A stretch of 64,000 bases of DNA from Vulcanimicrobiota bacterium (GTDB lineage: Bacteria > Vulcanimicrobiota > Vulcanimicrobiia > Vulcanimicrobiales > Vulcanimicrobiaceae), in the NCBI GenBank assembly GCA_963820825.1, contig CAWGBN010000002.1, forward strand, positions 347,949 through 411,948. The letters are read 5' to 3'. A program made the position numbers and the translations under genes. Below are positions 49,163 through 64,000 of this stretch, one piece after another (position 1 is the stretch's first letter; each line of letters begins with the position of its first letter). Below the pieces are notes generated by a model. It saw nothing but the letters and a program-made list of their open reading frames with translations, did not search any database and was not told the origin of the DNA.

Positions 49163-49756
49163 TTAGAACTCTGGGGCTAAGTCGGTGTAGATCGAGATAG
49201 CCGAAACGCGCTGGCCGTCCACGACGATCGTCACCGTTTGTGGCAGCGAGACCTTCTTCTTTGGCGACCCCACCGTCTCACCCGGCACGGTCGAGCTATA
49301 CTCCACGACAAAGTGGCTCGCGGTCTTTTTGGGACCGCCGCCATAGATCGATCGGACGGTCTCGTAACTGCTTCCGATGTGCAATCCGAGCCTCGTCGAG
49401 TAGCCCGAAAGATCGGCGTTCGGTACTGTGACCGAAGGCGCGGGCGCTCGGAAGAGCGCGATACTGCACTGATCGGTGGTCGCGGTCGCGAACGCGATGT
49501 TGTGCGTGCGATCGTACATCAGCAGTTGCCAAACGCCCGCAAGTCCCGGCCGGCCTTCCTCGTAGCGGCACCTCATGCTCTGCGGCTTTCCGGGAAGCAG
49601 CTCGGGCTTCAACATCTTGATCGTGGTACTTTCGGTGTTGTAGGCCGTTGCGCGTATGAACCAAGCGGTGAGCGCATCGGATGCGCCCGCAGCCCCCTGA
49701 GACGAGACCGCACACGCGATGACGGCCAGCGCCATACCCAAAATCCGACCCTTCAT
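49163..49756 (-). CDS. Hypothetical secreted protein
   Basis: GAGGAG RBS and ATG at 49756, signal peptide, TRLGLHIGSSYETVRSIYG motif. Confidence 0.7.
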   Translation of the reverse strand: MKGRILGMALAVIACAVSSQGAAGASDALTAWFIRATAYNTESTTIKMLKPELLPGKPQSMRCRYEEGRPGLAGVWQLLMYDRTHNIAFATATTDQCSIALFRAPAPSVTVPNADLSGYSTRLGLHIGSSYETVRSIYGGGPKKTASHFVVEYSSTVPGETVGSPKKKVSLPQTVTIVVDGQRVSAISIYTDLAPEF

Positions 49757-49877
49757 CTGGCTCTCCTCATGCGACCCGCGATTTCGGCAATCGAGAATCG
49801 CCACCCCCTGTTTTAGTCGGTCGGTCGGAGTATAATGGTTTCGAGCCCGAACCACAGCTACTACAAGGAGTATCGAT

Positions 49878-50822
49878 ATGCGACTACGTTCTGGCATGGT
49901 CCTAATGGCTGTCGGCGCTGTCTTGTTGGGGACAAGTTTGGCGCTTTTGAGCGCCGGCGGCGTTTCGGCGTCAACTGCGCTTGCCGATCAAATTCAACGC
50001 GACGCGAGTTGCCACTCGGGTGGTTATTGCCTCATTGAATCTAACGGCGGGGGCGGCGGGGCCATCAAAGGCACCAGCGGAGGAAGATCCGCGGCTGCCG
50101 CAATTTTCGGTCAGGGACGTGGCTTTGACAGCTTTGGCGTCGAGGGGCAAAGCACCGGCTCGGGAGGGACCGGCGTCTATGGTCTCTCGACCACTGTTTC
50201 CGACGGCGTTGGCGTTTACGGCGTCGGTGCGGGCGAAGCCCTTTTGGCATACAACCCAAGCTGTTGCAACACGTTCTCGTATGGACTCTTCTCCTCCGTG
50301 AACGATCCCAGCAGCTTTCCAATCTACACGTACGGTGCCGGCACCTCGGCGGGATCGTTTAGCGTCGACGCGGCCGGCGACGGCACGTTTGACGGAGCCG
50401 TCACTGCCTTTGGCGGATACTACACGGCCGTTCCGACTCGTGAAGGCGTCCAGGTAAGAGCGAGCGCGCCGGTCGCGCCGCGCGGAACGATCGAAGATAC
50501 GGGCACCGCGCGGCTGAACGGCGGCGTTGGCGTCGTCCGTCTGGCGCGGGACTTCGCAAGCATGATTGACACGGGCCGGGATTACCAGGTCTTCATCACG
50601 CCGGACGGGGATACGCGCGGCTGGCTTTACGTCGCAACGAAGTACCAAGGGGGCTTCGTCGTTCGCGAGGCCGAGCGCGGGCGTTCTTCAACGTATTTCG
50701 ACTATCGCGTGGTCGCGCACATTGCCGGTTCGCCCGAGGAACGGTTCCCCATTCTCCATCTGAATCGACCGCGTCGTCCGCACCTGCCTGCGTATCTGCA
50801 GCACCCGCCGAACGGCGACTAA
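49878..50822 (+). CDS. Secreted Gly-rich repeat protein with fibre-like C-terminal domain
   Basis: AAGGAG RBS, signal peptide, GV.G repeats, then EDTGTARL..G...V.L...F, YQVFITP.GD, FDYRVVA. Confidence 0.7.
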   Translation: MRLRSGMVLMAVGAVLLGTSLALLSAGGVSASTALADQIQRDASCHSGGYCLIESNGGGGGAIKGTSGGRSAAAAIFGQGRGFDSFGVEGQSTGSGGTGVYGLSTTVSDGVGVYGVGAGEALLAYNPSCCNTFSYGLFSSVNDPSSFPIYTYGAGTSAGSFSVDAAGDGTFDGAVTAFGGYYTAVPTREGVQVRASAPVAPRGTIEDTGTARLNGGVGVVRLARDFASMIDTGRDYQVFITPDGDTRGWLYVATKYQGGFVVREAERGRSSTYFDYRVVAHIAGSPEERFPILHLNRPRRPHLPAYLQHPPNGD

Positions 50823-50844
50823 CGCTCCAAACCCGCTGTTTTAC

Positions 50845-50870
50845 GAGGGCTCGCTACGGCGAGCCCTCTT
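50845..50870. terminator. Hairpin between convergent genes
   Basis: GAGGGCTCGC-TACG-GCGAGCCCTC-TT. Confidence 0.75.
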
Positions 50871-50871
50871 C

Positions 50872-51807
50872 TTATTTTTGGGCAAAGCTGACCACCGCCG
50901 AGTAGGCGTTGTTCGGCCTGATAAGCTTCGTCTTTTCGCCGCCCGCCGGATACTTGAAGAAGCCGACCAGACCGATCGTCGAGACGACCCGCCGGCCCTG
51001 TCTGGTGCCCTTGGTAACTACGAAGTAATTATGGGCGTTCCACTGGTGGCCGGACCAAGAGAGCCTCGTCGTTCCGATGACGTCGGCTTTGGAGCCCTTG
51101 ATGCGCAGCCGATAAATCTTATTGTCGGCTCCGATGGTAAGGTAAGTCCCATCGTACTGCACGCCGCTGGCGCCGCCGGTAACGCTTGTCGCGATCTGCT
51201 TCAGGGACGCACCACTCCGCGGCAGTTCGAAAAGCGCTAAATGGGTCTTGCCCTCATGCCGCGCGTAACCTTCGATGAAGAGGTTGCCAGCGTTGTCGTA
51301 GCCACACCACACCGGGCTGTTGAAGTTCCGGGCTGTGTAATACTGCGTCTCGCCGGTAGCTTTGTCCCAGACCCAAATGAAGCCATGACCTCCATACGGA
51401 CTGCTAGCGATGGGATTCGCCACTGCGAGATTTCCGGTCGTCGGGTCGACCGCGCACCCCACCGGCGAGCTATATACGTTCCAGGACTTAATGGGCTTGG
51501 CGCTGCCGTGCGGATACTCGACGGTCGCGCCGTAACTAAAGTTGACATACACGTTGCCGGTCGAATCGACACACGCACCGTTGGCATACCCCGAGCCGGC
51601 TCCGTAGAACGATCGCACCGGTTCGCCTCTGGGGTACGTGTAGACGTCGATGGAACTGTCATCGGTTACGTAGAGCAGATCCTGCTTCGCATGCAGCTCC
51701 GGCGACGCGCCGTGCACGGCCTCATGAAAAGCGGATGAGCCGACCGGCGAGAGCGAACCTCCGCCGCACCCTGAAAGAAAAACAATAGCTCCCATCGCCC
51801 ACTTCAC
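50872..51807 (-). CDS. Lipoprotein, beta-propeller
   Basis: Probable GTG at 51807, lipobox LSGC, LLYV, CVDSTGNVYV, CAVDPTTGNLAV, GVQYDG.YL. Confidence 0.8.
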   Translation of the reverse strand: MKWAMGAIVFLSGCGGGSLSPVGSSAFHEAVHGASPELHAKQDLLYVTDDSSIDVYTYPRGEPVRSFYGAGSGYANGACVDSTGNVYVNFSYGATVEYPHGSAKPIKSWNVYSSPVGCAVDPTTGNLAVANPIASSPYGGHGFIWVWDKATGETQYYTARNFNSPVWCGYDNAGNLFIEGYARHEGKTHLALFELPRSGASLKQIATSVTGGASGVQYDGTYLTIGADNKIYRLRIKGSKADVIGTTRLSWSGHQWNAHNYFVVTKGTRQGRRVVSTIGLVGFFKYPAGGEKTKLIRPNNAYSAVVSFAQK

Positions 51808-52013
51808 GGCGCCATTATAACATGCCGGAGAATTCGAGCCACCGCATATTCCCGCAGCCTTTCCGCCCGCCGGCATCCGGGTCGCCAAAAGGCCTGACGG
51901 GCGTCCTTTTTGAACCTCTCACCGTGGCGGTTGGGAAGCGCTCCCGAGCGGAACGATCGAGCAGTGCGGCGGCCACGGATTCAAATAGCAGCAATGAATA
52001 GGAGCAGACTCGG

Positions 52014-52409
52014 ATGAACCGCTTTCCCCTTCTCGTCATCGCCTTCGCAATCGCTCTCCTCGGTCCGGCTTCAGCGGGAACATTTTACCGCTTTGGTGCG
52101 CCGGTCGCGACGAGCGTTAGCATTGCGGGCCTCGTCGCCGACAACGGCGCGATTATTAACGGTAAGCGATTTTCCGTACAGCACCTTAACACGGGCCATT
52201 ACCTCATTGAATTCGATCCTGGAGTTTTTCCGTCGGGATGTGCGGCAATGGTAGTCGAAGGCTACGAGCACGTTATCGCCAGCGAAGTGTTCATGTACCC
52301 CACCGATTGCCGCCACACCGAATGGCACGTGGGCATCAGGGACCCCAAGACGCACGAACTCATGGATGCCAATTTCCAGTTCATCGCGGTGGAGGAACCG
52401 CGGCACTAA
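52014..52409 (+). CDS. Small secreted hypothetical protein
   Basis: AGGAG RBS, signal peptide, beta-rich body ending FQFIAVE. Confidence 0.7.
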   Translation: MNRFPLLVIAFAIALLGPASAGTFYRFGAPVATSVSIAGLVADNGAIINGKRFSVQHLNTGHYLIEFDPGVFPSGCAAMVVEGYEHVIASEVFMYPTDCRHTEWHVGIRDPKTHELMDANFQFIAVEEPRH

Positions 52410-52592
52410 ACGGCTTCCGACGCTCAGCTTAAAAACGCATAACGCGCCCAATGAACTTGAAACTGACCGCTTGCGGCTAAGCAAAACGCACCCCAAACCG
52501 ACAGTGAAGCAGCCAGATGCGGGACTTGTACGGAGGCGGTACGCAACGGGCAGTAAGGCACCCGGCGTAAGCCGAACGTAAAGCGGCCGGAG

Positions 52593-53642
52593 GTGACAAG
52601 CGTGTCTCGTTTGAGTCGGTGGAGCTTTCCATGGATCGTCGTAAGCGCCCTTTGCGCAGGCTGCGGTACAAATGCTATAACCGTCCCACAGCCCTCGAGT
52701 TCTCCGTCGCCGCCGAACGTGCTTAGTCGCGGCACGGTTGCGGTGATCGAGCGCAGTTCCACCGTCACGCGCGTCTTGGTCTTTCCGCCGCACAGCGACA
52801 AGTTCACCCGCGAAATTCCGATCCATGGTTCGCACCTCATCGCCAACTCGCTTGCGTTTGACCGGCGAGGTCACTTGTACGTCGGTATCAACGACGCGTC
52901 TCGCAACGGCCGGTACCACATCGTCGAGTTCAACCTTCGAGATTGGAAGGTCGTCCGCGAGATAAATGACATTCCGCAATGGTCCCACAGTTCGATCGCC
53001 ATCGACGACCAAAGCGTTCTCTATGTCAACACGAAGGCGTTTGTCGGCGGCGACGTCAAGCTTTTCCGCCGAGGAGACACAAAGCCGTGGATCGAGATCA
53101 AAGATCACCGTAGCCCGGTGACGATGCTCCTCGCCCGTGAGTCTCTCTGGGTGGGATACGAAGGAGCGCTAGCCGATGCGTTGGCGGGATATCGTTTACG
53201 CTCCACGGACCGGACCTGGTTCCAGACCGTCGGCGCGAATTTGCCACTCAAGCTCGCGGTAAATCCGGAAGCTTCGTTGATTGCAGCGAAGTTGCGGGGA
53301 AAGTCAAAAAACACCATTGAAGCGATCGACGTTCAGTCGGGTAAACGCGCGCGCCTTCTGGACGGTACCGGCGTAGAAGCAATGGTGAGCGACGACTCGG
53401 GCCACCTCTACATCGCGCAACTCCAGGGCATCATTCACCGTTGCAGTTTCCAAAGTTGTTCGCATTCGTTCGACACCGGTTCCACAGTTCTGGCGCTCGC
53501 ACTCAGTCCACTCGATGGGATGCTCTATGTTGCGGCAAACGGCAAACCAAGCATACAAGTTTACGACCCGCAAACCGGCAGCCGGGTGATGTATATCCCG
53601 ATCCACGGCGGCTTTCCGAGCCGCCTCGCCATCGAGCCGTAA
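52593..53642 (+). CDS. Lipoprotein, beta-propeller
   Basis: GGAGG RBS, CAGC lipobox, LAFDRRGHLYV, SDDSGHLYIA, DGMLYVA. Confidence 0.78.
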   Translation: MTSVSRLSRWSFPWIVVSALCAGCGTNAITVPQPSSSPSPPNVLSRGTVAVIERSSTVTRVLVFPPHSDKFTREIPIHGSHLIANSLAFDRRGHLYVGINDASRNGRYHIVEFNLRDWKVVREINDIPQWSHSSIAIDDQSVLYVNTKAFVGGDVKLFRRGDTKPWIEIKDHRSPVTMLLARESLWVGYEGALADALAGYRLRSTDRTWFQTVGANLPLKLAVNPEASLIAAKLRGKSKNTIEAIDVQSGKRARLLDGTGVEAMVSDDSGHLYIAQLQGIIHRCSFQSCSHSFDTGSTVLALALSPLDGMLYVAANGKPSIQVYDPQTGSRVMYIPIHGGFPSRLAIEP

Positions 53643-53716
53643 GCGATTGGCACGACCCTCGTACGTGGAATCCGCGTCCGAAAGCCCTTAAAACAAGACA
53701 AACCGACTTTTTAGGC

Positions 53717-53790
53717 TGGCCGGGAGTCGAATCCAAGCCCGGGGATTCCAGCCGATGCCGCCCGTTACCGAAAAGTGTTATTCTGTAACG
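53717..53790 (+). repeat. Copy A of a 74-bp imperfect direct repeat (att-like)
   Basis: Ungapped hand alignment to 55461-55534 gives 55/74 identities, including an identical TGGCCGGGAGTCGAA. Confidence 0.85.
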
Positions 53791-53814
53791 CTATTCCGCC
53801 GCACTTATCCCCAA

Positions 53815-54020
53815 CAAGTTTCACAAGCGACACACCGTCGCTCGATCCATCGAGCAGATCGGCTCCAGCTTGCAACGCGAGGCGCGTTTTGCCGACACTA
53901 CCCGTACCGATGAGCGTCGCGGACGAGGGCTTCGATCTCGGCCAGCACGTCTTCGCGACCGATGAGCGGTGTGGCTTGCCTTGGCAAGATTGTTGGGTAG
54001 TGATCCGAGAGACGCAAGCG
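53815..54020 (-). pseudogene. Fragment of a STAND/P-loop ATPase
   Basis: LPRQATPLIGREDVLAEIEAL, then frameshifted TLIGTGSVGKTRLALQ..ADLLDG..DGV. Confidence 0.7.
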
Positions 54021-54131
54021 GGCCGCGGCCGATGCGGAGATCGCGTCATGCTCATCTTTGAAAGCCGGATCGATTTCCGATAGCCTTACCGCGCTCTCAG
54101 GCGGAACCTTGAAAAGATCGCTATACTTCAT
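54020..54131 (-). pseudogene. N-terminal fragment resembling a polyphosphate kinase 2 family protein
   Basis: MKYSDLFKVPPESAVRLSEIDPAFKDEH resembles PPK2 N-termini as I recall them; short match only. Confidence 0.45.
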
Positions 54132-54147
54132 CTGACCTGATTTAGGT

Positions 54148-54791
54148 TCAGTAAGTGAGTTTGTCGCGCCGTTCAAAGAGCCTCGCGAAGACGGCGCCGA
54201 ACATAAAGCCGCCGATGTGCGCCAAGTAAGCCACGTCGTTCGGCGTCTGCGGCGCGATCTGCCCGGCGCTCCAAAGCTGTAGTAAGAACCAAAAACCGAT
54301 CAGAATTACTGCCGGTATGTAGGCAACCCGAATAAATATAGCGATGATCAAAATCGAACGAATATTATCGGTCGGAAACGTAACCAAAAATGCGCCCATG
54401 ACCGCGGCGATAGCACCGCTCGCGCCAAGGTTGGGTTCCGTTGAGTGCGGAGCGAATGCAATCTGGGCCGCGGCTGCCGCCACTCCACCCAAGAGATAGA
54501 AAATCAAATAGCGCCACGATCCCATCGTATCTTCGATGATGGGGCCGAATGCCCAGAAGAAGACCATGTTCCCGATGAGGTGCGCCCAGCTCGCGTGCAT
54601 GAACATCGCGGTGAGAATCGTGATCAAATCGCGACCCGCGGCGACTTCCGCCGGAGTCATCGCCCATTTCCGAACGAACGCATCGCCGTTCGTCAGCTCC
54701 AGCACGAAGACTCCTACATTCACCGCCACGATTAGTAGCGTGACGATCGGGAAATTGTCGGGCGCCGCGAGACGTCGCTTAATGGAATCAT
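54148..54791 (-). CDS. Rhomboid family intramembrane serine protease (1-nt frameshift near the start)
   Basis: MIPLSD.., MFMHASWAHLIGNM, LGASGAIA, AHIGGF. The ATG at 54791 is one base out of frame with the body. Confidence 0.85.
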
Positions 54792-55009
54792 GCGCGGTGA
54801 AGATTACCGAGCGAACACAGAGTCGCCTGCAATCACGGCCAACTTCCCGCGCGGCACAGGAAAGCGTTATAAATCAGGCAACGCCGACTCCCGCCGCGGT
54901 CGCACCAGTGCGGACTTCGGCGCGGATGTCGGCCCGATTCTCAGCAAGCGGTTCTGACCTAACAAAGGCAAGGCGCACGCGGGGGCGGGAGTGAGTCGGA
55001 CTCCCACTG

Positions 55010-55290
55010 TTGCGTTCTTCGATCTGAAGCGCAGATTGCATCACCAGGCCCAGCAGCGCAGGCCGCACTTGGCGATAGTCGCTGATGGCGACGAGCACGC
55101 CCGAGACGCGGCCGGCCGCATCGCGGATCGGCGCTCCGGTGCACGCTAGCGACTGGCCTCCCTTCGCAAAGTGCTCCGCGCACATCAGTTGCAGCGGGCG
55201 CGACTCGGCGATCACCGTACCCACGCCATTTGCCCCGTTCCGGGGAATGTGCTTGGGGCCCACTCCACAGAGAAAGTCTTCGCGACCAAG
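55010..55290 (-). pseudogene. Isolated GAF-domain fragment of an AcoR-like transcriptional activator
   Basis: GANGVGTVIAESRPLQL..AEHF, CTGAPIRDAAGRVSGVL, LGLV..SA.QIE; no start or AAA+ domain. Confidence 0.65.
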
Positions 55291-55460
55291 CTCGAGTCGC
55301 CATGGTGGCGATTCTTAACGGGGCGTCCGAAGCGTACGACAACTCTTACGACAAATTTCGCGCGGAAACCGGCGGAATGCGCGAACGCTAGCGGACGAAA
55401 AAATCGGCCTCGAGCCGCCGACGCGGCAAGGAAAATAAACTATTTCTTGTTATTTTGGGA

Positions 55461-55534
55461 TGGCCGGGAGTCGAACCACTGCTCGGGGGTTCCGGTGAGT
55501 CCCGTCTGCTACCGAAACGTGTTACTTTGTAAGG
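55461..55534 (+). repeat. Copy B of the 74-bp imperfect direct repeat (att-like)
   Basis: Matches 53717-53790 and is followed by a GTTAGAAA direct repeat at 55597 and 55607. Confidence 0.85.
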
Positions 55535-55867
55535 CTTCTTCGTCACCCTAGTTCCCGACCCGCTACCGTCCAATACCCACCATTCTCGACCGCTCCGTTA
55601 GAAAATGTTAGAAACTCAGCCTCGGTGGGTCGAGATTTCCACTGCACGTCAAGTCCGAGGTGATGCGCCATCCGATAGAGGAGGGCAGCGTTACCCGGGG
55701 ATAGGGGATAAGGGCGCAAAGACGAGACACCCCCAGCCGGCAATGCCGCATGGTTCAAAGCCCCCAATGCGATCGGGGCCGCTAAGCCGGCTACGCGATC
55801 GGCGCCACTATGCTGCGCGGCGGCGATGCCCGCTCAGCCAACGGTGCGGGCTGGGCGGCGGGGGGGG

Positions 55868-57133
55868 TTAAGGTGATAACAAGAAAACCGTGCCGTATCC
55901 GGCTCCACCGCCAGATCGAGTGGTACCATAGAGCCTGCGGTTTATGTTGATCAGCGCAGCGTCGGGCTCCGCGCCGTCCCCGCCTACGAAAGCAAACAGC
56001 ACGACTTCCGTGTGCAGGTTCAAGATCGCAAAGATTGTGCCGTACCCGCTTGCACCACCGCTATCGGTCACGCCAAACAGTGTGCCGTGGACGTTGGTAA
56101 GAGCAGCTTTCGGGTAGCTGCCGTCAGCACCACTCTTGAAACTATAAACCATGGTTTCCTGGCCGGAGAGTGTCATCTTAAAGACGGTGCCCCAATTGCC
56201 GATGCCACCTTCAACGGTTGTGCCGTAAAGCGTACCGCCGACATTGGTTAGGCTTGCCTCTGGTGCTGTACCGTCGGGCGCACCTGCAAAATTGTAAAGG
56301 ACGGTCTCGTTGCCGGATTTTGTGATTTCAAAGACCACGCCGTTGCCGCTTGTCCCACCTGCAGTGGTTGTGCCATAGAGCTTGCCATTGACATTGGTTA
56401 GTCCGGCAATTGGGGCTGAACCATCGGCCCCGCTTAAGGCACCGAAGCTGTGGAGCACCGTTTCTCCGCCCGAGGTCGTGATCTTAAAGACGGTCCCGGT
56501 CCCGAGACCGCTTGCGCCGCCCTGAGAGGTTGTGCCGTAGAGCGTGCCGTGCACGTCGGTCAGACTTGCCCAAGGATACAGACCGTCTGTTTCTGTTACC
56601 TTGCCGAAGCTGTGAATCACGCTTTCCGTGCCGGAGGTCGTGATCTCAAAGACGGTACCGGTGTCGTTTACGCCGCCTTCAGTGGTGGTGCCGTAGAGCG
56701 TACCGCCCACATTGGTCAGACCGCCATAGGGACTTTGGCCATCCGTCCCAGTGCCGAAGCTGTGAACCACGGTTTCGCTGCCGGACCTCGTGATTTTGAA
56801 GACGGTCCCAAAACCGTATGCCCCACCTTGATTCGTCGTGCCATAAAACGTGCCGCCCACATTGGTCAGACTTGAGGTCGGTACTGCGCCGTCAGCCCAG
56901 GAGAAAGTGTGTAGAACGGTTTCAGTCTGGACGTTCTTTTTCATCGCTGTCGGCTGAGCTTGTTGTACGCTAAATAACGCGCGCGACCCGCCGCGCTCGG
57001 CGTGCGTGGATATGGCGCGGCCTTGCGGCATTGCGCCCGGCGCGCCGATCGGCGGCTGCGATCCGCCGCAAGCTGTGAGCAATACTGCGGTGGCGACGCT
57101 TAGCGCGTAGCGGATTAAGGCTAGGGGTTTCAT
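55868..57133 (-). CDS. Lipoprotein with tandem GloVer-type (TIGR03803-like) repeats
   Basis: Lipobox LTAC and about seven repeats of DG..P...LTNV.GTLYGTT..GG....GTVF.IT.SG.ETV.HSF. Confidence 0.88.
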   Translation of the reverse strand: MKPLALIRYALSVATAVLLTACGGSQPPIGAPGAMPQGRAISTHAERGGSRALFSVQQAQPTAMKKNVQTETVLHTFSWADGAVPTSSLTNVGGTFYGTTNQGGAYGFGTVFKITRSGSETVVHSFGTGTDGQSPYGGLTNVGGTLYGTTTEGGVNDTGTVFEITTSGTESVIHSFGKVTETDGLYPWASLTDVHGTLYGTTSQGGASGLGTGTVFKITTSGGETVLHSFGALSGADGSAPIAGLTNVNGKLYGTTTAGGTSGNGVVFEITKSGNETVLYNFAGAPDGTAPEASLTNVGGTLYGTTVEGGIGNWGTVFKMTLSGQETMVYSFKSGADGSYPKAALTNVHGTLFGVTDSGGASGYGTIFAILNLHTEVVLFAFVGGDGAEPDAALININRRLYGTTRSGGGAGYGTVFLLSP

Positions 57134-57173
57134 CTTGCGTTGAAGGCCATTGAAAGTTCGCAGCCTCTATGGC

Positions 57174-58160
57174 TTACTGAGTTGGCACGACACTGACGGC
57201 GACACCTTTTAAATTCGATCTCGCCTTGGGCAGCTTTGCGATTACAGCGCCCCTGCCGCCGGCGGGGTAGGGCCAAATACCGATGTGCGTAGGAGGCCCG
57301 GAACGCACTCCAAACGGTACGACCACGCTGCCACCCTGAATCCATGACGTGCCAGCTTCGTGGGCGACGCCGTCAAAGGTTGTTTTTCCAACAACCGTCG
57401 CCTTGGTACCATGAATGCTAAGGCGGTAGATCGCCACGCCGTTGAAGAGCGTTTCAATCGTGATATAGTTGCCGTCCCACTGAACTTGCCCTAAACGGTT
57501 GCGGAGCTTCCTATCAAGCGCAAATCTAACAAACGTGTCGCTACCTGATCGCAACTCTGCAAGTTTTGGCGCGTTGTACCATGTACCATCGACAAAGAGA
57601 TTTCCAACACTATCATATGAAAGATATGCTGGAACTAAGCGGACGGTGTAATATCTTGGCGTGCCGGAGCCGTTTGGCACGATGGCGACCTGGTTGTTAA
57701 GATTCAAAGAGATAGCGACATTACCGGTCACTGGGTCGACAGAACATGCAAGGGATTCGTAACCATCGACTTGCACCGTCCCCATCGGTTGTGTTGCGCC
57801 GTGGGCGTAGTGCTCCAGCACAATAGCGCGTGAACTGTTCGCGGTAAGCTCGTAAAAGCTCCCGTCTGGGGCGGGGCAGATGCCACCACTGCCGTCCAAA
57901 GAGCCCGCTGGTTCACCCGAAGGGTACGAATAGATACATACGCCGCTACACCCAGCATACGCATACAAAAGAGCATCGGGGGAGTCTCCCGCGATTCTCT
58001 GCCATCCACCATCCGCCGCGGCCGAGTGCGTGGCGATCGTGCGGCTTTGCGGCATCGCGCCCACCGCGCCGATCGGCGGCTGCGATCCGCCGCACCCGGC
58101 CAGCATTGCCGCAACGGCAAAGCCGTCAAGCGCATAGCGTCCGAAATCTAAGCTCTTCAT
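57174..58160 (-). CDS. Lipoprotein, beta-propeller
   Basis: GAGGAG RBS, LAGCGGSQPPIGA, CSVDPVTGNVAI, YDSVGNLFVDG, VQWDGNYI. Confidence 0.83.
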   Translation of the reverse strand: MKSLDFGRYALDGFAVAAMLAGCGGSQPPIGAVGAMPQSRTIATHSAAADGGWQRIAGDSPDALLYAYAGCSGVCIYSYPSGEPAGSLDGSGGICPAPDGSFYELTANSSRAIVLEHYAHGATQPMGTVQVDGYESLACSVDPVTGNVAISLNLNNQVAIVPNGSGTPRYYTVRLVPAYLSYDSVGNLFVDGTWYNAPKLAELRSGSDTFVRFALDRKLRNRLGQVQWDGNYITIETLFNGVAIYRLSIHGTKATVVGKTTFDGVAHEAGTSWIQGGSVVVPFGVRSGPPTHIGIWPYPAGGRGAVIAKLPKARSNLKGVAVSVVPTQ

Positions 58161-58367
58161 CTACCTTGCTCCTCGCTGCATGAACGGACCAGCGGCTGAG
58201 AACGTTCGGTGCTTGGCGCCGCGCCCCCGCGCAACGACCAGGAACTCAGGCCTCTCGGTCCATGCTGCCGCGCCGGGAGCGCGCACCGGTCGATGGCGAA
58301 GGCGAGCGCGACATCGCTCGCTAATCGCAACCTCGATTCCAGACCGTGCGCTATAATCGACCTTGAA

Positions 58368-59264
58368 ATGACCGAGGAGCAAGAAGCCTGGGCGAAGTTT
58401 GAGCGCCGCTTACGGGCCAAGCTTAGAGAACATCAGAGGCAGGGGAAGGGTCCCAACGACCCGCTCTTTGTTACGGGATACCCGCAGGGCTCCGCCGTTA
58501 TAACGCAGCGTAGCGCATTGTATGACCAGATCCTGAACGGGCTGTTCGACGCAGCCAAGGCAGCCGATGAGTTCGAGTATGCCTGTTCATTGCTGAACTT
58601 CGATGGGCTGAAAGACAGCGGGTGGTTTCCGGAAGTCGAGAGTTGGACACTTATTAACGAGGTCTCTAGTTACGTTCACCTCCCGACGGTAACGCACGCC
58701 AAGCTTAGGCTTGGGATGCTGCAATACTCCCACATTGCAGAAATGGATATTACATATACTCTGATTATGAACATGCTCCGCGTCATATCAGGAGCCCGCT
58801 ACTCCATGATTCCTTTTGTGGACAAGAAAGGACAGCGCATCGACAAATCAGCTACGAAGATTCAGCGGATCTGTACTGCCGCGGCGAAAGTGGGCCTCGA
58901 AGGAGTCTGTGATCTTTTTGACTGGTATGAACCGCGCATACGGAACAGTTTCGCGCATTCAAACTATCAATTCCATGGAGACCAGTATAACATTGCACGT
59001 GGCCCCGGCATCGTAGCCGAAGGGGTAGTCAGAGGAGGGCTTTCCATCGAGCGGGAGATCCTTCCGAGAATCAACGGCGCGCTTCGCTTCTTCGTCACCT
59101 TCTACGGTGCGCGCGACCATGCAAGAGCAAACTATAAGACCAATGTTGTCGTAAAAGGTCGCCTAGGGCCGAACGAGGCGTACGTTGATGTTGAACTGCT
59201 TACGCGGCCGGAAGGTGGTTTGATCGGCGTCCGGACGCCACCCGAGGCACCCGCTAAAACATAA
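58368..59264 (+). CDS. Hypothetical protein with HEPN-like RxxxxH motif
   Basis: TATAAT at 58352-58357, ATG at 58368, helical protein with RIRNSFAHSNY, visibly lower GC than the core genes. Confidence 0.7.
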   Translation: MTEEQEAWAKFERRLRAKLREHQRQGKGPNDPLFVTGYPQGSAVITQRSALYDQILNGLFDAAKAADEFEYACSLLNFDGLKDSGWFPEVESWTLINEVSSYVHLPTVTHAKLRLGMLQYSHIAEMDITYTLIMNMLRVISGARYSMIPFVDKKGQRIDKSATKIQRICTAAAKVGLEGVCDLFDWYEPRIRNSFAHSNYQFHGDQYNIARGPGIVAEGVVRGGLSIEREILPRINGALRFFVTFYGARDHARANYKTNVVVKGRLGPNEAYVDVELLTRPEGGLIGVRTPPEAPAKT

Positions 59265-59312
59265 GCGAGGACCAAGCTAATAAACAGCCCACTAACCGCT
59301 ACTGAGCGCGCT

Positions 59313-62300
59313 TCAACCTAAGCTCTTAAGGGTCTCGATTAGCTTGTCTTTAGTACGACCGTATAAGTTGCGCCCGGCCCTGGCAGCGTAAATCGTTGCT
59401 CGCGATACGTCTTGCGCAAGCAACTGTGGGACCGGCGTCGCTCGCAGCATCGGCAGCCACTTGGTCTCCCACTCGTCGCGTCGCGGATCGCGGAAGACCG
59501 TGTACACGTCGCTTTCGGCTGGAACGCCGCCCTCCTCGACCTGTTCGACCTTGTTCGACTCCTTGCCGATATAGTCGAAGCCGTCGATCGCGACGTGGCG
59601 GCGAGCGAGTAGCCCGGCGGTCTGCTTCCCGCACGGCTTTCCGTCGGCACCAGCGCACTTGGCTTCCGGATGATACTCGTACTCGCGCAGCACGTCGCCG
59701 TAGCTCTTCACCCGCGCCATTGTGCGCGAACCGTGCGGCGCCGATGCCGTAATGCTATACCGCTTGGCGTCTTTTGAGTACTGGTCGATCCATCGCATGT
59801 CTTCCCACTTACGCGGATCGGTCTCATACGGCGCGATTAGATGGAACCGCTCCGGATCGGCGCCGATCGGGTGGCCGAGTTTGCGGACATGGCAGTTTAG
59901 AATGAAGTTGAATGGTTTGATTTGCTTCGCGTACGTCTTACCATTGTTGAGCGTCCGAAGCGGCTTCATAACGGCCGGGCTGCTCACCGTCGTGCGGCCA
60001 ACAGCAACGCGCTTCTCGAACCCAAGCGGGTCCGTGGATCGCCCCAGCGATCGGCGCACGATCGACAGCCACGCCTGCGCGATCCAGCCGCGATCGTCGC
60101 TTTTCGGATCGGTCGGATTGAGGAGATGCCCGAGGCCATGCTCGGAGTAGCGGTCCTCCTTGTTGTTAAGGCCCTCGCGCAGCAATGCTGGCTCGCCGTT
60201 TAGATCTCGGACGAAGAGCGCGTAACGCTTGGCGGAAATCGCCAGGCACCACAACTGCCGCCGCTTGCCGGTGATCGGGTCGCGGTTGTCCTCCTCAATC
60301 TTCAGGACGGACCCTTTGATCGCGGCGCGGTCGTACGGGTTCAACTGCTCGAAGCTCCCCGCGATCGCATCAACCTGCGCCCAGGATAGCGCCCGGATCG
60401 CGGGCTTCCCGCGCTTTCGGTTGGCACCACCCGGGCACTCGATTAGGCCGCCGCGCCGCGTCGCGACCATCGCCATGGAGTCGGTATCTTCCATCGCGTA
60501 CGTGCCGCCCAGGTCGGTCACGCAGCGTTCCAGCAGCGCCAACGTCAGACGCGCCGCGGCGGTAATCAGCGACGCCAGCGGCGGGAAACAATACTCTCCC
60601 GCGCGTTCAGGGTTCGCGACTTCGCACCGGAACGGCGTCGGATCGATGCCGTAGCACGTCGCCGGCACCTTTTTGGCGGTCTCCTCGCGGATCATCTCTG
60701 CGAAGATGCCGTAACTGGTCGCGTTGGCGAGCACCTTGAGCGCCTTGTCCAGCCGCGTCCGTTCCTGGTCCGGGAGTGCCGTATTGTTCGCAAGGCGTTT
60801 GCGCTCTTCGATCACCTTGCGGAAGAAATCGTCGCGTCGCGGGTCGATCGGCACCGTACCGCGCAGCGTGATCGGCCGTAGACCCGGCAGCTGTCCCTTC
60901 GGTGCGATCGCAAACGCCTCGACGATTTTGGGAACTCGGCCGGTCAGCAGCACGGACGCGGCCAGATCGGGCAGCGCGAACCAGAGACCGTCCTTCGGGT
61001 CGTCGCTGGTCGCGGAGACGTAGTTCAGACCAACCTGGTAGTCGTTGCTTTCGCGGCCGTACTTGGCGCGCGTCGGGAGAATGTCTCCGGACGGTATCAC
61101 GCGCGCGAACGCGGGAAGTTTTGTCCACGTCGCCGGGCTGAACAGTTTTTCAGGCGTAATCGTGCGGAGAAACTCGGTCGTCTCGGAGACTTCCACGGGA
61201 ACCACGGAGACTTCCGCGGCGACTACGAACCGCCACAGACCCATGAGGGCGTTCACGGTGGGATACATGGAAAGAAAGTCCGTGTACACGACGGGAACGG
61301 CGACTTTCCGAATATGCGCGCTCGTCCGTCCACCGAAGAACGCGGACTCCGCGTAGCCGAGATACCGCTTCTCGAAGTGTTGCCGCTCCATGATCGGCGC
61401 AATACCCATTTTGCGTAGGTGCGCCTTGCCCAGGGAGGCCGGCGAATAGGCCTGCGTCTCTTGCAGTTCCACGTCGAAGCGGTCGTACTCGTCCAGCAGC
61501 TTGAACGACAGTTCCGCGGTCGCCGCGACGTCTTGCCGGTTGTAGTCGATATATGCAGGTGTGACGACGCCGTGGCGATCGACGGTGCCTTTTCCCTGTT
61601 CGACGCCGAACGCTTTGCTCGCCGAATCGAGACTGTGCCCGCGATCGGTCAGCACGAACGCTAGCGTCCGCAGATCGAGAAAGTGCCCGCGAAACTTATA
61701 GTCGTCCTCGGGGTCGCCGGTCTCCGATCCCTCGGGAATCAGATCGACCGGGTCGGCGTCCAGCGTGCCGGTGAACCCCTTGAGCGCGCGTTTACTGTCG
61801 ATGTGCTTAATCGCGATCCGCGGGCGCTGACGACGCTCGTGACGTGCCCCTTCCACGTCGGCGTAGTCCCACATTACCAGCGAAAAACCGCCGGCGAACC
61901 GCCGATCGCTGCGGCTGCGCGCGTCGCCAAAGTCCACGGCGAGTCGGGACAGGTCGAAGGGCAGATTGAAGCCGACGATCAGCCCGCGCCCGTCGTATCC
62001 GGCAGCGTAGAACTTTTCAAGAAATGCGCGCCGGTCGAGCAGCCGCAGCTGCGGCACGCCGCGCCGCCGATCGGTGGCGGCCGCATGCGTCGCGACGTAG
62101 GCTTCGAGTTTCGCGCGATCGGCGCGCGGCAGATCGTCGCCGAAGAACAAGCCCTCTTCCAGGCAAATGCGATCCTCGAAATAGCGGTAGCTGCCGAACG
62201 TCAGCGCCTGGGCCGTGTCGGTGCGGGTCTCGGTATCGAAGACGAGCATCCGCGACGGCCGCCGCCAATGCCGCAGTTTCTTACGATCGCGCTGCTCCCG

Positions 62301-62363
62301 CTGCGGTTCCGGGTAGACACGGATCGCCAGCTTCAGCGGAGTCGACGTTACGCCGCTTGCCAT
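59313..62363 (-). CDS. Family B DNA polymerase of mobile-element type (1016 aa)
   Basis: ExoI VFDTET, ExoII GFNLPFD, ExoIII YNRQD, motif A DFLSMYP, motif B KVLANATSYG, motif C DTDS, KRY, and an HTH-like C-terminus. Confidence 0.92.
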   Translation of the reverse strand: MASGVTSTPLKLAIRVYPEPQREQRDRKKLRHWRRPSRMLVFDTETRTDTAQALTFGSYRYFEDRICLEEGLFFGDDLPRADRAKLEAYVATHAAATDRRRGVPQLRLLDRRAFLEKFYAAGYDGRGLIVGFNLPFDLSRLAVDFGDARSRSDRRFAGGFSLVMWDYADVEGARHERRQRPRIAIKHIDSKRALKGFTGTLDADPVDLIPEGSETGDPEDDYKFRGHFLDLRTLAFVLTDRGHSLDSASKAFGVEQGKGTVDRHGVVTPAYIDYNRQDVAATAELSFKLLDEYDRFDVELQETQAYSPASLGKAHLRKMGIAPIMERQHFEKRYLGYAESAFFGGRTSAHIRKVAVPVVYTDFLSMYPTVNALMGLWRFVVAAEVSVVPVEVSETTEFLRTITPEKLFSPATWTKLPAFARVIPSGDILPTRAKYGRESNDYQVGLNYVSATSDDPKDGLWFALPDLAASVLLTGRVPKIVEAFAIAPKGQLPGLRPITLRGTVPIDPRRDDFFRKVIEERKRLANNTALPDQERTRLDKALKVLANATSYGIFAEMIREETAKKVPATCYGIDPTPFRCEVANPERAGEYCFPPLASLITAAARLTLALLERCVTDLGGTYAMEDTDSMAMVATRRGGLIECPGGANRKRGKPAIRALSWAQVDAIAGSFEQLNPYDRAAIKGSVLKIEEDNRDPITGKRRQLWCLAISAKRYALFVRDLNGEPALLREGLNNKEDRYSEHGLGHLLNPTDPKSDDRGWIAQAWLSIVRRSLGRSTDPLGFEKRVAVGRTTVSSPAVMKPLRTLNNGKTYAKQIKPFNFILNCHVRKLGHPIGADPERFHLIAPYETDPRKWEDMRWIDQYSKDAKRYSITASAPHGSRTMARVKSYGDVLREYEYHPEAKCAGADGKPCGKQTAGLLARRHVAIDGFDYIGKESNKVEQVEEGGVPAESDVYTVFRDPRRDEWETKWLPMLRATPVPQLLAQDVSRATIYAARAGRNLYGRTKDKLIETLKSLG

Positions 62364-62827
62364 CCGTCAAAATCCGTGCCCTTCCACCACGACGGATTCA
62401 TATGCTCGCGCAGCCAGGCATCGAGTTTGCGAAGGAACTCGGCGACGTAGCGCAGCCCGTTGACAACTAGATGCTCGATGCAGTCGGCTGCTCCGCACAA
62501 AAACCCGGCTGCAGCCAATAGTGGGCTGCCGTCAGCGTTGGACAGCACCCCCGGCGGCCACTCGTACTGTGCTTCGCTCAACGTGCGGTGGGCAGTTATC
62601 GGAACCTCGATGGTGATCGGCGAGTTCGCTTCGCCAGCAACATGGTTCGTCTCTGTCGTCTTCTTGCGATTTTTGAGTGCATAGCATCTCAGGCAACGCT
62701 TCGGACGACTTCTGCGGACGAGCATCTCCTCGCGGCCGCAGTCCGTGCAAGATGCTCCTTGGCCGACGCGGCGCTGCGTTTTCGCCCTGCGCGCGCCGGT
62801 CTTGATGGGATCGGTCGAGCGTGCCAT
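62348..62827 (-). CDS. Zinc-finger / degenerate HNH-like protein
   Basis: CTDC...CLRC, then ETNHVAGEANS.....VPITAHR. Overlaps the PolB start. Confidence 0.65.
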   Translation of the reverse strand: MARSTDPIKTGARRAKTQRRVGQGASCTDCGREEMLVRRSRPKRCLRCYALKNRKKTTETNHVAGEANSPITIEVPITAHRTLSEAQYEWPPGVLSNADGSPLLAAAGFLCGAADCIEHLVVNGLRYVAEFLRKLDAWLREHMNPSWWKGTDFDGWQAA

Positions 62828-63327
62828 CAGCTGACCCTCGCGTACATGGACTGAAATGACAGGATGCCAGCCGACCCCAGGCGTTCGAGCTCGTCGGTGT
62901 CGGTCAGTAGCGGCACGGCGTTGCCCCGAGCATCGATGATTGAGACGCCGTGGAACCGCACAAGCTCGGTCTCGTCGCCGGTCTCCAGGTAATGGTTGAC
63001 CGCGTTCCAGTACTCGCCGACGATCGAGGCCGAGCGCGAGTCCACGGTGGCGATTTCCGCCAGCCCCTCCAGCGTTGGAAGCACCAGGACCCGCAAGAGC
63101 CGGTCGGACGCGCGGGCCTTGTAGGTGCCGCGGGAATTCTTCCGCAACGCCCCCTTCGCATGCCGCAGTACCGTCGCGGGGCTGACGCTCTCCTCGCGCG
63201 CGGCCCGACTGAGTGAGATGTCCTCCGAGCGCATCGCCGTGACGACGCGCGCCAGCTTCAGTTTCGTGGCTTGTCGCGGCTTCGGTTTGGCTTGACCGGT
63301 GCGCCGCTTTGTCTTACGCTTTGCCAT
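62827..63327 (-). CDS. Basic protein with N-terminal helix-turn-helix
   Basis: SLSRAAREESVSPATVLRH. TGATG coupling to the next gene. Confidence 0.7.
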   Translation of the reverse strand: MAKRKTKRRTGQAKPKPRQATKLKLARVVTAMRSEDISLSRAAREESVSPATVLRHAKGALRKNSRGTYKARASDRLLRVLVLPTLEGLAEIATVDSRSASIVGEYWNAVNHYLETGDETELVRFHGVSIIDARGNAVPLLTDTDELERLGSAGILSFQSMYARVS

Positions 63328-63387
63328 GGTAGTGAAATCCCTGAGGGCCGCGCGAGTCGGATCGCCGGTCCTCCGTTTTTGAGTCCA

Positions 63388-63747
63388 TTAGGTATCGCGA
63401 GCCTCCCGGAAATAGAAGGCGCTGCCGTGCTTGGCCAGCCTCACGCTAGCAATCGCGCCCTTTGCGGTGATGTGGTTCTTGGCGGCTCGCATCTGCGCGT
63501 CGCGCTTGTCGTTGCTGGGTAGCGTGATGATTTCAAATGCGCCGGTATCGTCGCGCGCGACGGTGACTTTCCAGCGGGCTTCGCCCGTGAAGCTACCCTT
63601 TGGATCGAAGTCCACGGCAGCGATCGTGAAGGTTACGTCGCCGGCGATGTATTCGTCCTTCTTCGCGTAGCGAGCGCCGTCGGACGAGAACGAAAACTCG
63701 GTGGGCTCTTGCGCGGCATTCTTGCGCTTGCGTGTGGTGGTTTTCAT
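63388..63747 (-). CDS. Small beta-rich protein (119 aa), possible ssDNA-binding protein
   Basis: GGGAGG RBS before the ATG at 63747; aromatic, beta-strand-rich sequence; upstream of the PolB operon. Confidence 0.6.
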   Translation of the reverse strand: MKTTTRKRKNAAQEPTEFSFSSDGARYAKKDEYIAGDVTFTIAAVDFDPKGSFTGEARWKVTVARDDTGAFEIITLPSNDKRDAQMRAAKNHITAKGAIASVRLAKHGSAFYFREARDT

Positions 63748-64000
63748 GATGCCTCCCGAAATATCTGCTTGCGCCGCCTTGGCGACGCTGAGTATGAACC
63801 GCGCGTCAATGGCGACGTTGTGTAACATCTCACTCGCTCGTTTAGCTCCCATCGCGACGCACGCCTGTGCGATCTCAGCCGGATCGTCGGGCCACCGGTC
63901 GAGCGACGAGCCGTCTTCGTACGGATCGCCCAGCGCGATCGCCAAGTCGCGCGACGTAGCCCGCGATCGCCTTTTGATCCTTCGTCGCTTTCGCGCGACG

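Follow-up and report, generated by a model that had tools for sequence, protein, structure and literature searches.

The PolB-side half of a probable Cas1-type casposon at a contig end in Vulcanimicrobiota, and insertion of related elements into comM

The window, a 64,000-nt stretch of a Vulcanimicrobiota bacterium assembly (GCA_963820825.1, contig CAWGBN010000002.1, positions 347,949 to 411,948; contig C2 below), ends in an operon that encodes a family B DNA polymerase (PolB) and four smaller proteins, the outermost of them cut by the end of the sequence. Three cargo genes lie on the other side of the polymerase gene, followed by a terminal inverted repeat (TIR) and a short stretch resembling comM (Table 1).

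Table 1. Features of the window from the insertion site to the end of the contig.
Feature	Position	Strand	Basis
comM-like 'leader' of the landing site; in-frame translation ..EVMRHPIEE..	55656..55683	+	comM similarity
14 nt adjoining the terminus, GGCAGCGTTACCCG, in the target-site duplication (TSD) register of relatives	55684..55697	+	one junction
Terminal inverted repeat at the PolB side, beginning GGGATAGGGGATAAGGGCGCAAAGACGAGACACCCCC; inner boundary uncertain	55698..55860	+	match to the TIR of L015
Cargo gene, 421 aa, phylum-specific paralogous family, internal ~150-bp repeats	55868..57133	-	cluster c2
Cargo gene, 328 aa, same paralogous family as the 421-aa gene, NHL/SBBP beta-propeller-like	57174..58160	-	language-model neighbours
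Cargo gene, 351 aa, no family match	58209..59264	+	ORF; inside stretch duplicated on C9
Family B DNA polymerase, 3'-5' exonuclease motifs, 1016 aa, intact	59313..62363	-	ORF, Pfam, alignment
Zn-ribbon + HNH-like protein, 159 aa	62348..62827	-	conserved residues, AF2 model
Conserved protein, 166 aa, HTH-like (by eye only)	62827..63327	-	homologues in relatives
Conserved protein, 119 aa, possibly OB fold	63388..63747	-	homologues in relatives
~250-aa HTH protein, C-terminal 84 codons; 5' part lost at contig end	63748..64000	-	

The polymerase reading frame has no internal stop along its 1016 aa; it overlaps that of the 159-aa protein by 16 nt, which in turn overlaps that of the 166-aa protein by 1 nt. 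In an alignment of 16 homologues, the exonuclease and polymerase motifs were all invariant: D43/E45, N133/F136/D137, Y274/D278, D362/S365/Y367, K543..S550/G552, D626-T-D-S629 and K712-R-Y714. Reading frames and motifs thus confirm the original prediction of an intact proofreading polymerase overlapping a Zn/HNH-like gene that itself overlaps an HTH-like gene. More than 3500 homologues of this polymerase were found. Neither the single sequence nor a profile of 16 sequences matched a polymerase among PDB sequences, and since no PolB of solved structure was significantly similar to it in sequence, the priming mode of this enzyme is an issue of interest. PADLOC and NCBIfam searches with the four operon proteins returned nothing useful.

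In the 159-aa protein, C27, C30, C45, C48, H62, N68 and H80 were invariant among 20 homologues. Its AF2 model (pLDDT 87.7) places two strands (58–62 and 72–76) and a helix (77–89) around invariant residues, a predicted beta-beta-alpha unit, and its language-model neighbours in the ESM Atlas were all HNH clusters (score 0.85–0.89), which we take as a lead only. The Pfam HNH models matched none of the 20 family members, and fold searches with the model listed no HNH protein (Foldseek best E 2.0, VIA best Z 4.7) because matches to its long C-terminal helix fill the list. A profile search with this family collected 640 proteins, all unnamed or annotated as 'hypothetical' and free of Pfam domains. 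The 166-aa protein has 42 homologous ORFs in related loci, directly 5' of the HNH-like gene, and matched neither Pfam nor PDB sequences; profiles of the small operon proteins gave only chance-level rows against the PDB. What had been read as a single 'SSB-like' ORF (63388–63999) corresponds to two genes in relatives, the last two entries of Table 1, which are in frame with each other with zero stops in between. For the first of these, the AF2 model of the 119-aa product (pLDDT 70) recurrently retrieved OB/SSB folds at noise level (PrgE, E 0.13; Rim1, Z 5.2, rmsd 3.6, 74 aligned). The second matches residues 185–244 of a protein of about 250 aa in the related locus L015 (7860–8615; 78% identity), an HTH protein with weak TrcR and HTH_AsnC matches.

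The two reverse-strand cargo genes matched nothing in Pfam or PADLOC. The cluster c2, to which the 421-aa product belongs, has 53 members in 19 loci, located both within and beside the relatives' casposons. The 328-aa product scored 0.98 to Vulcanimicrobiota clusters in the language-model comparison, with NHL annotated on 35% of the members of one of them, and the 351-aa product had no match in Pfam, PADLOC or PHROGs.

The original prediction emphasized that no Cas1 gene lies beside the polymerase. This is true within the window, but the end of the window is also the end of contig C2, so that the visible sequence upstream of the polymerase gene is limited to 1637 bp. Of the 63 related loci whose upstream flank reaches 5 kb or more, 62 had a divergently oriented Cas1 gene 1.7–4.5 kb upstream of the polymerase gene; counting all loci irrespective of flank, Cas1 was matched in 69 of 78, one of the 69 being spurious. 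These Cas1 proteins belong to Pfam PF01867 (E 1e-35 to 4e-42). The gene order conserved in the relatives is Cas1 and HTH on one strand and, on the other, HTH, HTH, a 120-aa protein, a 170-aa protein, an HNH-like protein and PolB, and the window genes match the last five of this series. Complete relatives are elements of 12–17 kb with TIRs starting GGGATAGGAG and 14-bp target duplications, the latter being read in L015, L039 and L017. The four closest complete relatives have TIRs of 170–300 nt with 96–99% identity that bracket 14.6–16.5 kb. An inverted-repeat pair was present in 43 loci, and in about 36 of them, counted by eye, the arms start at a GGGATAGG-like terminus. The relatives reside in Eremiobacterota and Acidobacteriota.

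The window contains one such end. Across the whole genome, the TIR of L015 matched once, at 55656–55741 of the window (BLAST, E 1e-11), and the motif that starts at 55698 is common to the relatives' TIRs. This terminus lies 3615 bp beyond the polymerase stop codon, the corresponding distance in L015 being 3786 bp; no second copy of this TIR was found in the assembly. From the terminus and the layout of the relatives, it follows that the element spans 55698 to 64000 and continues beyond. We therefore read this part of the window as the PolB-side half (8.3 kb) of a bacterial Cas1-type casposon of about 16 kb, with its Cas1 gene beyond the contig end (probability about 0.87). About 7.6 kb, Cas1 included, would be missing from the assembly, and the window copy would have a Cas1 and a second TIR of its own. 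The kinship with casposons suggested originally is thus borne out by Cas1 linkage, TIRs and TSDs in the relatives and by the homologous terminus in the window.

The further proposal, that the element lacks Cas1 and is moved by another recombinase, is not supported: Cas1 is probably missing from the window only because the contig ends 1.6 kb before the polymerase gene, at a distance shorter than that at which the relatives carry it. The original prediction had set against its own reading an ordinary casposon, with Cas1 and terminal repeats just outside the window, and this is the arrangement seen in the relatives. A casposon-derived replicon in which Cas1 was swapped for another recombinase, which would be a new element class, could be invoked from the visible 1.6 kb and from L066, the single locus among the 63 with enough flank that showed no Cas1 match within 10 kb upstream of its polymerase gene. 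Such a swap is very unlikely, given that no recombinase of any kind was found in the visible 8.3 kb, that the terminus and target site are those of Cas1-bearing relatives and that all but one of the relatives with enough flank keep Cas1.

The genome itself offers some grounds for a different reading, in which the Cas1 half was truly lost and the window holds a truncated or rearranged remnant with a stranded polymerase operon. No intact Cas1 gene was found anywhere in the assembly, only a decayed one on contig C8 that adjoins decayed polymerase pieces. Solo termini occur at C8:42361 and C9:130233. A second, near-identical copy at C9:1–5610, whose polymerase gene is broken, showed no TIR within 14 kb; this genome does therefore hold copies that are rearranged or truncated. 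Against such a loss, the four visible genes and the terminus of the window copy are intact, every invariant polymerase residue is kept and the assembly is only 85% complete. Moreover, the window and C9 copies each run into a contig end within one and the same repeated module, as is typical of assemblies broken by repeats. A remnant is therefore improbable, albeit less so than a recombinase swap. Under the preferred reading of an intact casposon cut by the assembly, the apparent absence of Cas1 is an edge effect, and similar calls made at contig ends deserve caution.

Elements of other kinds are least likely of all. The only Pfam match of the polymerase, a weak one to DNA_pol_B_2 (PF03175, E 4e-6), is to an organellar/viral model, which could be taken to favour a pipolin, prophage, plasmid or cellular Pol II locus; the context found in the relatives already refutes these identities. 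Pipolins are likewise self-replicating bacterial elements with a PolB, but their polymerases have KTRG in place of KxY and they use tyrosine recombinases, according to the part of PMC5695915 that deals with these features. In contrast, the KRY motif is retained here in 16 of 16 sequences, as the original prediction had argued, the visible part holds no recombinase and the relatives use Cas1. The earlier remark that phage structural genes are lacking also stands: none of the 16 ORFs in 49163–64000 matched a structural PHROG, Pfam scans were equally negative, and neither an integrase nor a tRNA was found. A tblastn search with the polymerase against 72,556 plasmid records gave no match. Cellular PolB models of Pfam and NCBIfam did not match either, and a search for an empty site beside the rhomboid gene in six relatives found that gene alone in common and the locus unconserved.

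The tRNA-like att remnants proposed 4–6 kb downstream of the polymerase gene could not be recovered, as ARAGORN reported no tRNA and Rfam nothing in 52000–64000 at E ≤ 1; ten relatives' loci were also free of tRNA genes. The tail resembling a tRNA 3' end sits inside a multi-copy repeat of about 165 nt (55453–55614), outside the element. A reading of this repeat as an RNA found no support, with an RNAalifold covariation term of -0.54 and a compensatory change in 1 of 32 pairs.

Among known casposons the element is probably nearest to family 3, and it belongs to a large bacterial lineage in Eremiobacterota and Acidobacteriota. Family 3 comprises bacterial casposons such as AceAut-C1 and NitAL212-C1, with which the lineage shares, in the description by Krupovic et al. 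(2014, PMC4046053), a bacterial host, the core of Cas1, PolB, HNH (here HNH-like) and HTH genes, and TIRs with a TSD. In L031 and L079, the Cas1 domain is followed by a Zn ribbon and HTH_31, an arrangement described for AceAut-C1 (PMC4046053). Judged by eye, the polymerase has long motif strings in common with bacterial sequences that Table S2 of PMC7544198 places in the PolB_CDTDS group, but motif C reads EDTDS here rather than CDTDS. The hosts also differ, Eremiobacterota and Acidobacteriota not being among those named for family 3 in the relevant part of PMC4046053. A further difference lies in the targets, which here are comM, the 3' end of a SEC-C-motif gene and TTGAC-containing sites. 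Family 2 (Aciduliprofundum boonei, Methanosarcina mazei) has the same five-gene core and a TSD of about 14–15 bp, and 6opm, presumably the M. mazei casposase, is the nearest PDB entry to the Cas1 of the relatives (E 5e-20), with CRISPR Cas1 chains ranking behind it. Family 2 members are archaeal and target tRNA genes, in contrast to the bacterial host and protein-coding target gene seen here. As far as PMC5137440 and PMC6614799 cover it, the family 2 casposase is site-specific and recognizes a leader-like sequence that precedes the duplicated segment.

By analogy, a Cas1-type casposase encoded about 3.5 kb upstream of the polymerase gene, past the contig end, would join both GGGATAGG termini of the element to a specific target, generating the 14-bp duplication. 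The element's own family B polymerase would copy it, perhaps with help from the HNH-like and HTH-like proteins encoded by the coupled genes; every enzymatic step is proposed on this comparative basis. In one sublineage, the target would be a sequence of about 40 bp in comM (codons ~253–266), the window copy sitting at a putative relic of it. We found no published description of a casposon lineage in Eremiobacterota or Acidobacteriota; with more than 3500 polymerase homologues, these data point to a large one in soil members of both phyla.

Insertion into comM was read from three loci, G176, L078 and L022, with both junctions in the first. In G176, a genome of the same genus, comM residues 1–265 are followed by a 55-nt perfect TIR, a 15.9-kb element containing Cas1 and PolB, the second TIR and comM residues 261–443, with the TSD GGCACCGTGACGAT on both sides. 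In L078, comM 1–265 abuts a TIR, and in L022 a TIR abuts comM 261–443. A sublineage thus inserts into comM at about codon 265, a target that is new here. In Acinetobacter, comM is the site-specific landing gene of AbaR/Tn6022-type islands, which are Tn7-like transposons; the landing gene is the same, but the enzymes and the position in comM are unrelated.

The window copy appears to abut a comM-like relic of about 40 nt, not comM itself. From 55656, the flank is 85% identical over 40 nt to comM of two related genomes; against the genome's own comM, which is intact at C9:294323–295663, the best local alignment falls at codons 253–264 (29 of 38 nt). The 14 nt GGCAGCGTTACCCG have the same codon register as GGCACCGTGACGAT in G176 and the L022 junction, and the comM-like leader motif also flanks the elements in L015, L017, L039 and L023. 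We tentatively suggest, at somewhat less than even odds, that the Eremiobacterota sublineage homes to the ~40-bp comM segment (codons ~253–266) and that, apart from insertions in comM proper, it has also seeded or retained 'landing pads' of ~40 nt at other places in the chromosome, including those under the window, L015, L017, L039 and L023 copies. If so, the pads would mark the recognition footprint of the casposase, and a casposon could carry its own target, in the way that a CRISPR leader-repeat unit persists as a site of repeated insertion. In the published work considered here, how a casposase chooses its site has been established for archaeal enzymes of families 1 and 2, and comM provides a short coding-sequence target, precise to the base pair, for testing that of bacterial ones.

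On this proposal, the pads would be comM look-alikes in which the similarity ends exactly at the stretch that a casposase has to read, and those of the window, L015, L017, L039 and L023 would adjoin scars of older elements.

The window spans C2:347949-411948, so that its position 64000 is the physical end of contig C2 of the source genome (411,948 bases), and the polymerase operon lies directly beside it.

ORFs of the polymerase operon (window coordinates)
Feature	Position	Strand	Remark
ORF, 5' end open	63388-63999	minus	
ORF, 166 aa	62827-63327	minus	
ORF, 159 aa	62348-62827	minus	one base shared with the 166-aa ORF
PolB ORF, 1016 aa	59313-62363	minus	16-base overlap with the 159-aa ORF

Pfam gave a weak match of the family B polymerase (PolB) to the organellar/viral model PF03175 (E 4e-6, residues 269-370) and none above noise for the other three ORFs, and PADLOC, NCBIfam and a PDB sequence search on the operon proteins added no further identification. 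Despite the weak Pfam match, PolB is complete as judged from its sequence: in an alignment of 16 homologues (59-83% identity), the exonuclease motifs Exo I (D43, E45), Exo II (N133, F136, D137) and Exo III (Y274, D278), the polymerase motifs A (D362, S365, Y367), B (K543, S550, G552) and C (D626-T-D-S629) and the KxY motif (K712-R-Y714) are all invariant. The intact polymerase operon of the original prediction is thus borne out.

More than 3500 PolB homologues are present in a large protein collection, the named ones coming from Candidatus Cybelea and Tumulicola, and a scan of species-representative genomes yielded 78 loci in Eremiobacterota and Acidobacteriota, two cultured Tunturiibacter chromosomes among them. 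ORFs were called and clustered across all 78 loci. In the conserved module, the strand opposite to PolB carries two genes, one coding for a protein of ~520 aa and one for an HTH protein of ~340 aa. The PolB strand then has, in order, an HTH_31 protein (~75 aa), a further HTH protein (~250 or ~95 aa) and proteins of ~120, ~175 and ~165 aa followed by PolB. Pfam identifies the ~520-aa product as Cas1 (PF01867, E 1e-35 to 4e-42), with a zinc ribbon and HTH C-terminal of the Cas1 domain in acidobacterial examples; the best PDB match of the relatives' Cas1, above CRISPR Cas1 chains, is 6opm_A (E 5e-20), which we take to be the Methanosarcina mazei casposase. Cas1 was detected by tblastn in 69 of the 78 loci (the L020 match, of 50 aa, is spurious) and in 62 of the 63 whose flank upstream of PolB is 5 kb or longer, L066 being the sole exception. 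It lies on the opposite strand throughout, at a distance of 1.7-4.5 kb to the start of PolB (L026, where PolB is truncated, was excluded from these distances), and the eight loci without any Cas1 match each have an upstream flank below 4.2 kb. In the closest relatives, L015 (83%) and L017 (78%), Cas1 starts ~3.55 kb upstream of PolB, and since only 1637 bp are visible there in the window, the absence of Cas1 is expected. The PolB of another relative, L014, is 79% identical to that of the window, and its Cas1 is 39% identical to that of L015; judging by these sequences, polymerase and integrase modules seem to have been exchanged between sublineages.

In the four complete relatives that are closest, stretches of 14.6-16.5 kb are delimited by inverted repeats of 170-300 nt (96-99% identity), all of which begin GGGATAGGAG, and 14-bp direct repeats bracket the elements (GTATCGATGACCCT in L015, AGCGTTGTGTTTCC in L039 and GGCACAGTCACTCG in L017). 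A self-BLAST survey recovered an inverted pair in 43 of the 78 loci. Of these pairs, about 36 were judged by eye to begin at or within a few bases of a GGGATAGGAG-type terminus, and the remainder are internal repeats or cut contigs. The terminal inverted repeat (TIR) of L015 matches the source genome at a single place, C2:403604-403689 (window 55656-55741; BLAST, E 1e-11), where alignment places the terminus at window 55698 (GGGATAGGGGATAAGGGCGCAAAGACGAGACACCCCC). The distance from the PolB stop to this terminus is 3615 bp, compared with 3786 bp in L015. A search of the whole assembly for a further copy of the window TIR found none. On this alignment, the element is taken to occupy 55698-64000 and to continue past the contig end; scaled to L015, about 7.6 kb would be missing, comprising the remainder of the HTH gene cut by the contig end, two further HTH genes, Cas1, cargo and the TIR of the far end. 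Beyond the contig end we would expect HTH genes and a divergent Cas1, then the 55698 terminus in inverted orientation, adjoined by GGCAGCGTTACCCG. It is very probable (roughly 0.87) that the real, intact polymerase operon is part of an ordinary casposon with its recombinase half past the contig end. The alternative proposed originally, a Cas1-less element class moved by a different recombinase, is not supported, given the homologous terminus at 55698 and the linkage of Cas1 in the relatives.

In Krupovic et al. 2014 (PMC4046053), casposons are defined by Cas1, PolB, TIRs and a target-site duplication, bacterial family 3 has HNH and HTH genes, and the Cas1 of AceAut-C1 is fused to Zn-binding and HTH domains. 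Kazlauskas et al. 2020 (PMC7544198) place the polymerase of the A. boonei casposon in a separate group, PolB_CDTDS, related to main and protein-primed PolBs alike; the weak Pfam match to the protein-primed model fits this intermediate position. Bacterial members in their Table S2 include those of Nitrosomonas, Sphingomonas, Chloroflexi and an uncultured prokaryote, and comparison by eye shows long strings common to these and the window PolB (VGFNLPFDLSRLA, DF.SMYPTV..LMGLWRFV, NATSYGIF, KRYALF, SEHGLGHL and KPFNF), which supports the motifs named as casposon-type in the original prediction. Literature searches for casposons in Acidobacteria, Eremiobacterota or WPS-2 gave only two incidental papers; within the reach of these searches, this large lineage is not in print.

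Among the small proteins of the module, the 159-aa family keeps C27, C30, C45, C48, H62, N68 and H80 in 20 of 20 sequences, with the consensus HHVAG.ANS..T...P.NDHR. In its AlphaFold model (pLDDT 87.7) the conserved residues fall on two strands and one helix, after which comes a long helix. Protein language-model neighbours are exclusively HNH clusters, at scores of 0.85-0.89, under the 0.9 mark, and Pfam, PDB profile and fold searches gave no HNH match. We read it as a putative divergent HNH protein; an HNH-type gene is described at the corresponding casposon position in PMC4046053. The 166-aa protein is HTH-like to the eye only. The open ORF at the contig end, called SSB-like in the original prediction, corresponds to two separate genes in relatives, and the OB/SSB likeness of its 119-aa part is at noise level: the model (five strands and a helix, modest confidence, pLDDT 70) has weak OB-fold ssDNA-binding neighbours within the noise range of the tool (PrgE, E 0.13; Rim1, Z 5.2; Streptomyces SSB, Z 5.1; PriB, Z 4.8).

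Three cargo genes lie between the terminus and PolB and gave no matches for family assignment; two are paralogues from a beta-propeller-like family, specific to the phylum, whose members recur within and next to the casposons of relatives. Inside the 421-aa cargo gene, window 56139-56871 consists of tandem ~150-bp repeats of ~67% identity, and the stretch of ~80 nt that encodes the N-terminus of both paralogues occurs again at several sites of the source genome. One locus, L040, is a 15,747-bp long-read MAG contig made up of exactly one casposon, with its start 3 nt and its end 8 nt inside the two GGGATAGGAG termini; it may represent the element in free linear form, or an insertion that varies between strains and was assembled separately.

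New points are confined to homing to comM and putative detached landing pads. The 42 nt left of the window terminus read GAGGTGATGCGCCATCCGATAGAGGAGGGCAGCGTTACCCG, with the in-frame translation EVMRHPIEEGSVTR and a stop TAG contributed by the terminus. This motif, with third positions varying, adjoins the elements of L015, L017, L039 and L023 on either side. In a DNA search of 40 relatives, two genomes matched the window flank with 85% identity along 40 nt, in both cases inside a gene, and this gene is comM/yifB (Mg_chelatase, E 5e-94). True comM insertions at the matched spot were found at three loci. In G176, a genome of the same genus, comM residues 1-265 are followed by a perfect 55-nt TIR, an element of 15,885 bp, the other TIR and comM 261-443, with GGCACCGTGACGAT flanking the element on both sides; the element encodes a Cas1 (74% identical to the L015 protein) and a broken PolB, as well as the three small genes. 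In L078, comM 1-265 adjoins a TIR, and in L022, a TIR adjoins comM 261-443. The source genome's own comM is intact at C9:294323-295663. The five pad-type flanks, ~40-nt comM look-alikes, align best locally to one place in it, nt 749-794 (codons 250-264), with identities of 29/38 (window), 28/38 (L015), 27/39 (L017), 18/21 (L039) and 23/28 (L023), and similarity to it is absent farther upstream. The flank opposite the pad in relatives opens with a degenerate terminus (e.g. GGGATGGGAGCTAGCCGCAGAAAG in L015); therefore, new copies appear to insert between the pad and an older scar.

Identity of Cas1 to that of L015 splits the loci into a comM type (58-82%) versus a second group (~37-39%); the flank of the latter is a gene 3' end that encodes a terminal SEC-C motif, GSGKKFKRCHG. 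In acidobacterial loci, TTGAC adjoins the terminus. Five relatives' casposons (L011, L043, L048, L024 and L062; Cas1 ~38% identical to that of L015) sit at such a SEC-C-type gene end. In further genomes of the family (G126, G082, G181, G090 and G109), comM is split near residues 217-238, with the halves 26 kb apart in G126 and 39 kb in G082, and therefore a second site in comM is seemingly used by another kind of element. A whole-word literature search found no publication treating casposons together with comM.

Elsewhere in the source genome, window 63102 to 57504 has a second copy, C9:1-5610, which runs in reverse orientation. Like the window copy it breaks off at a contig end, and the two breaks fall within the same module, which points to a repeat-induced assembly break. 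The C9 copy differs by 224 substitutions and 38 indels, of which 164 substitutions and ~25 single-base indels fall within 1.2 kb of PolB, the remainder being ~99.7% identical; this copy may be a pseudogene or a mosaic, or an artefact of polishing. No terminus or TIR follows it within 14 kb. A third, decayed casposon (C8:379283-384577; Cas1 and PolB pieces at 29-36% identity) keeps the usual divergent layout, with stop-containing Cas1 fragments on the minus strand and PolB-like fragments (31-34%) on the plus strand. Two further termini, for neither of which a partner was found, are at C8:42361, where a casposon-type terminus (GGGATAGGAGTTAG...) directly adjoins the 3' end of a gene for an 827-aa protein with a C-terminal SEC-C motif, and at C9:130233, where a GGGATAGGGG terminus adjoins the tRNA-3'-end-like sequence GGGTTCGAATCCCACC.

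Outside the casposon, a ~165-nt repeat is located at window 55453-55614 and again at 53709-53792, with a 118-nt repeat at 55329-55449. On the minus strand the ~165-nt repeat begins TTTCTAACATTTTCTAACGGAGCGG, and its tail, of which there are two kinds, resembles a tRNA 3' end; the tRNA-like att remnants noted originally are probably this repeat. As an RNA it is without covariation support. It is multi-copy and clustered in related genomes (at most 8 matches per genome among 8 candidates scored), and an IS110-family transposase gene is found 43 nt from one of the copies.
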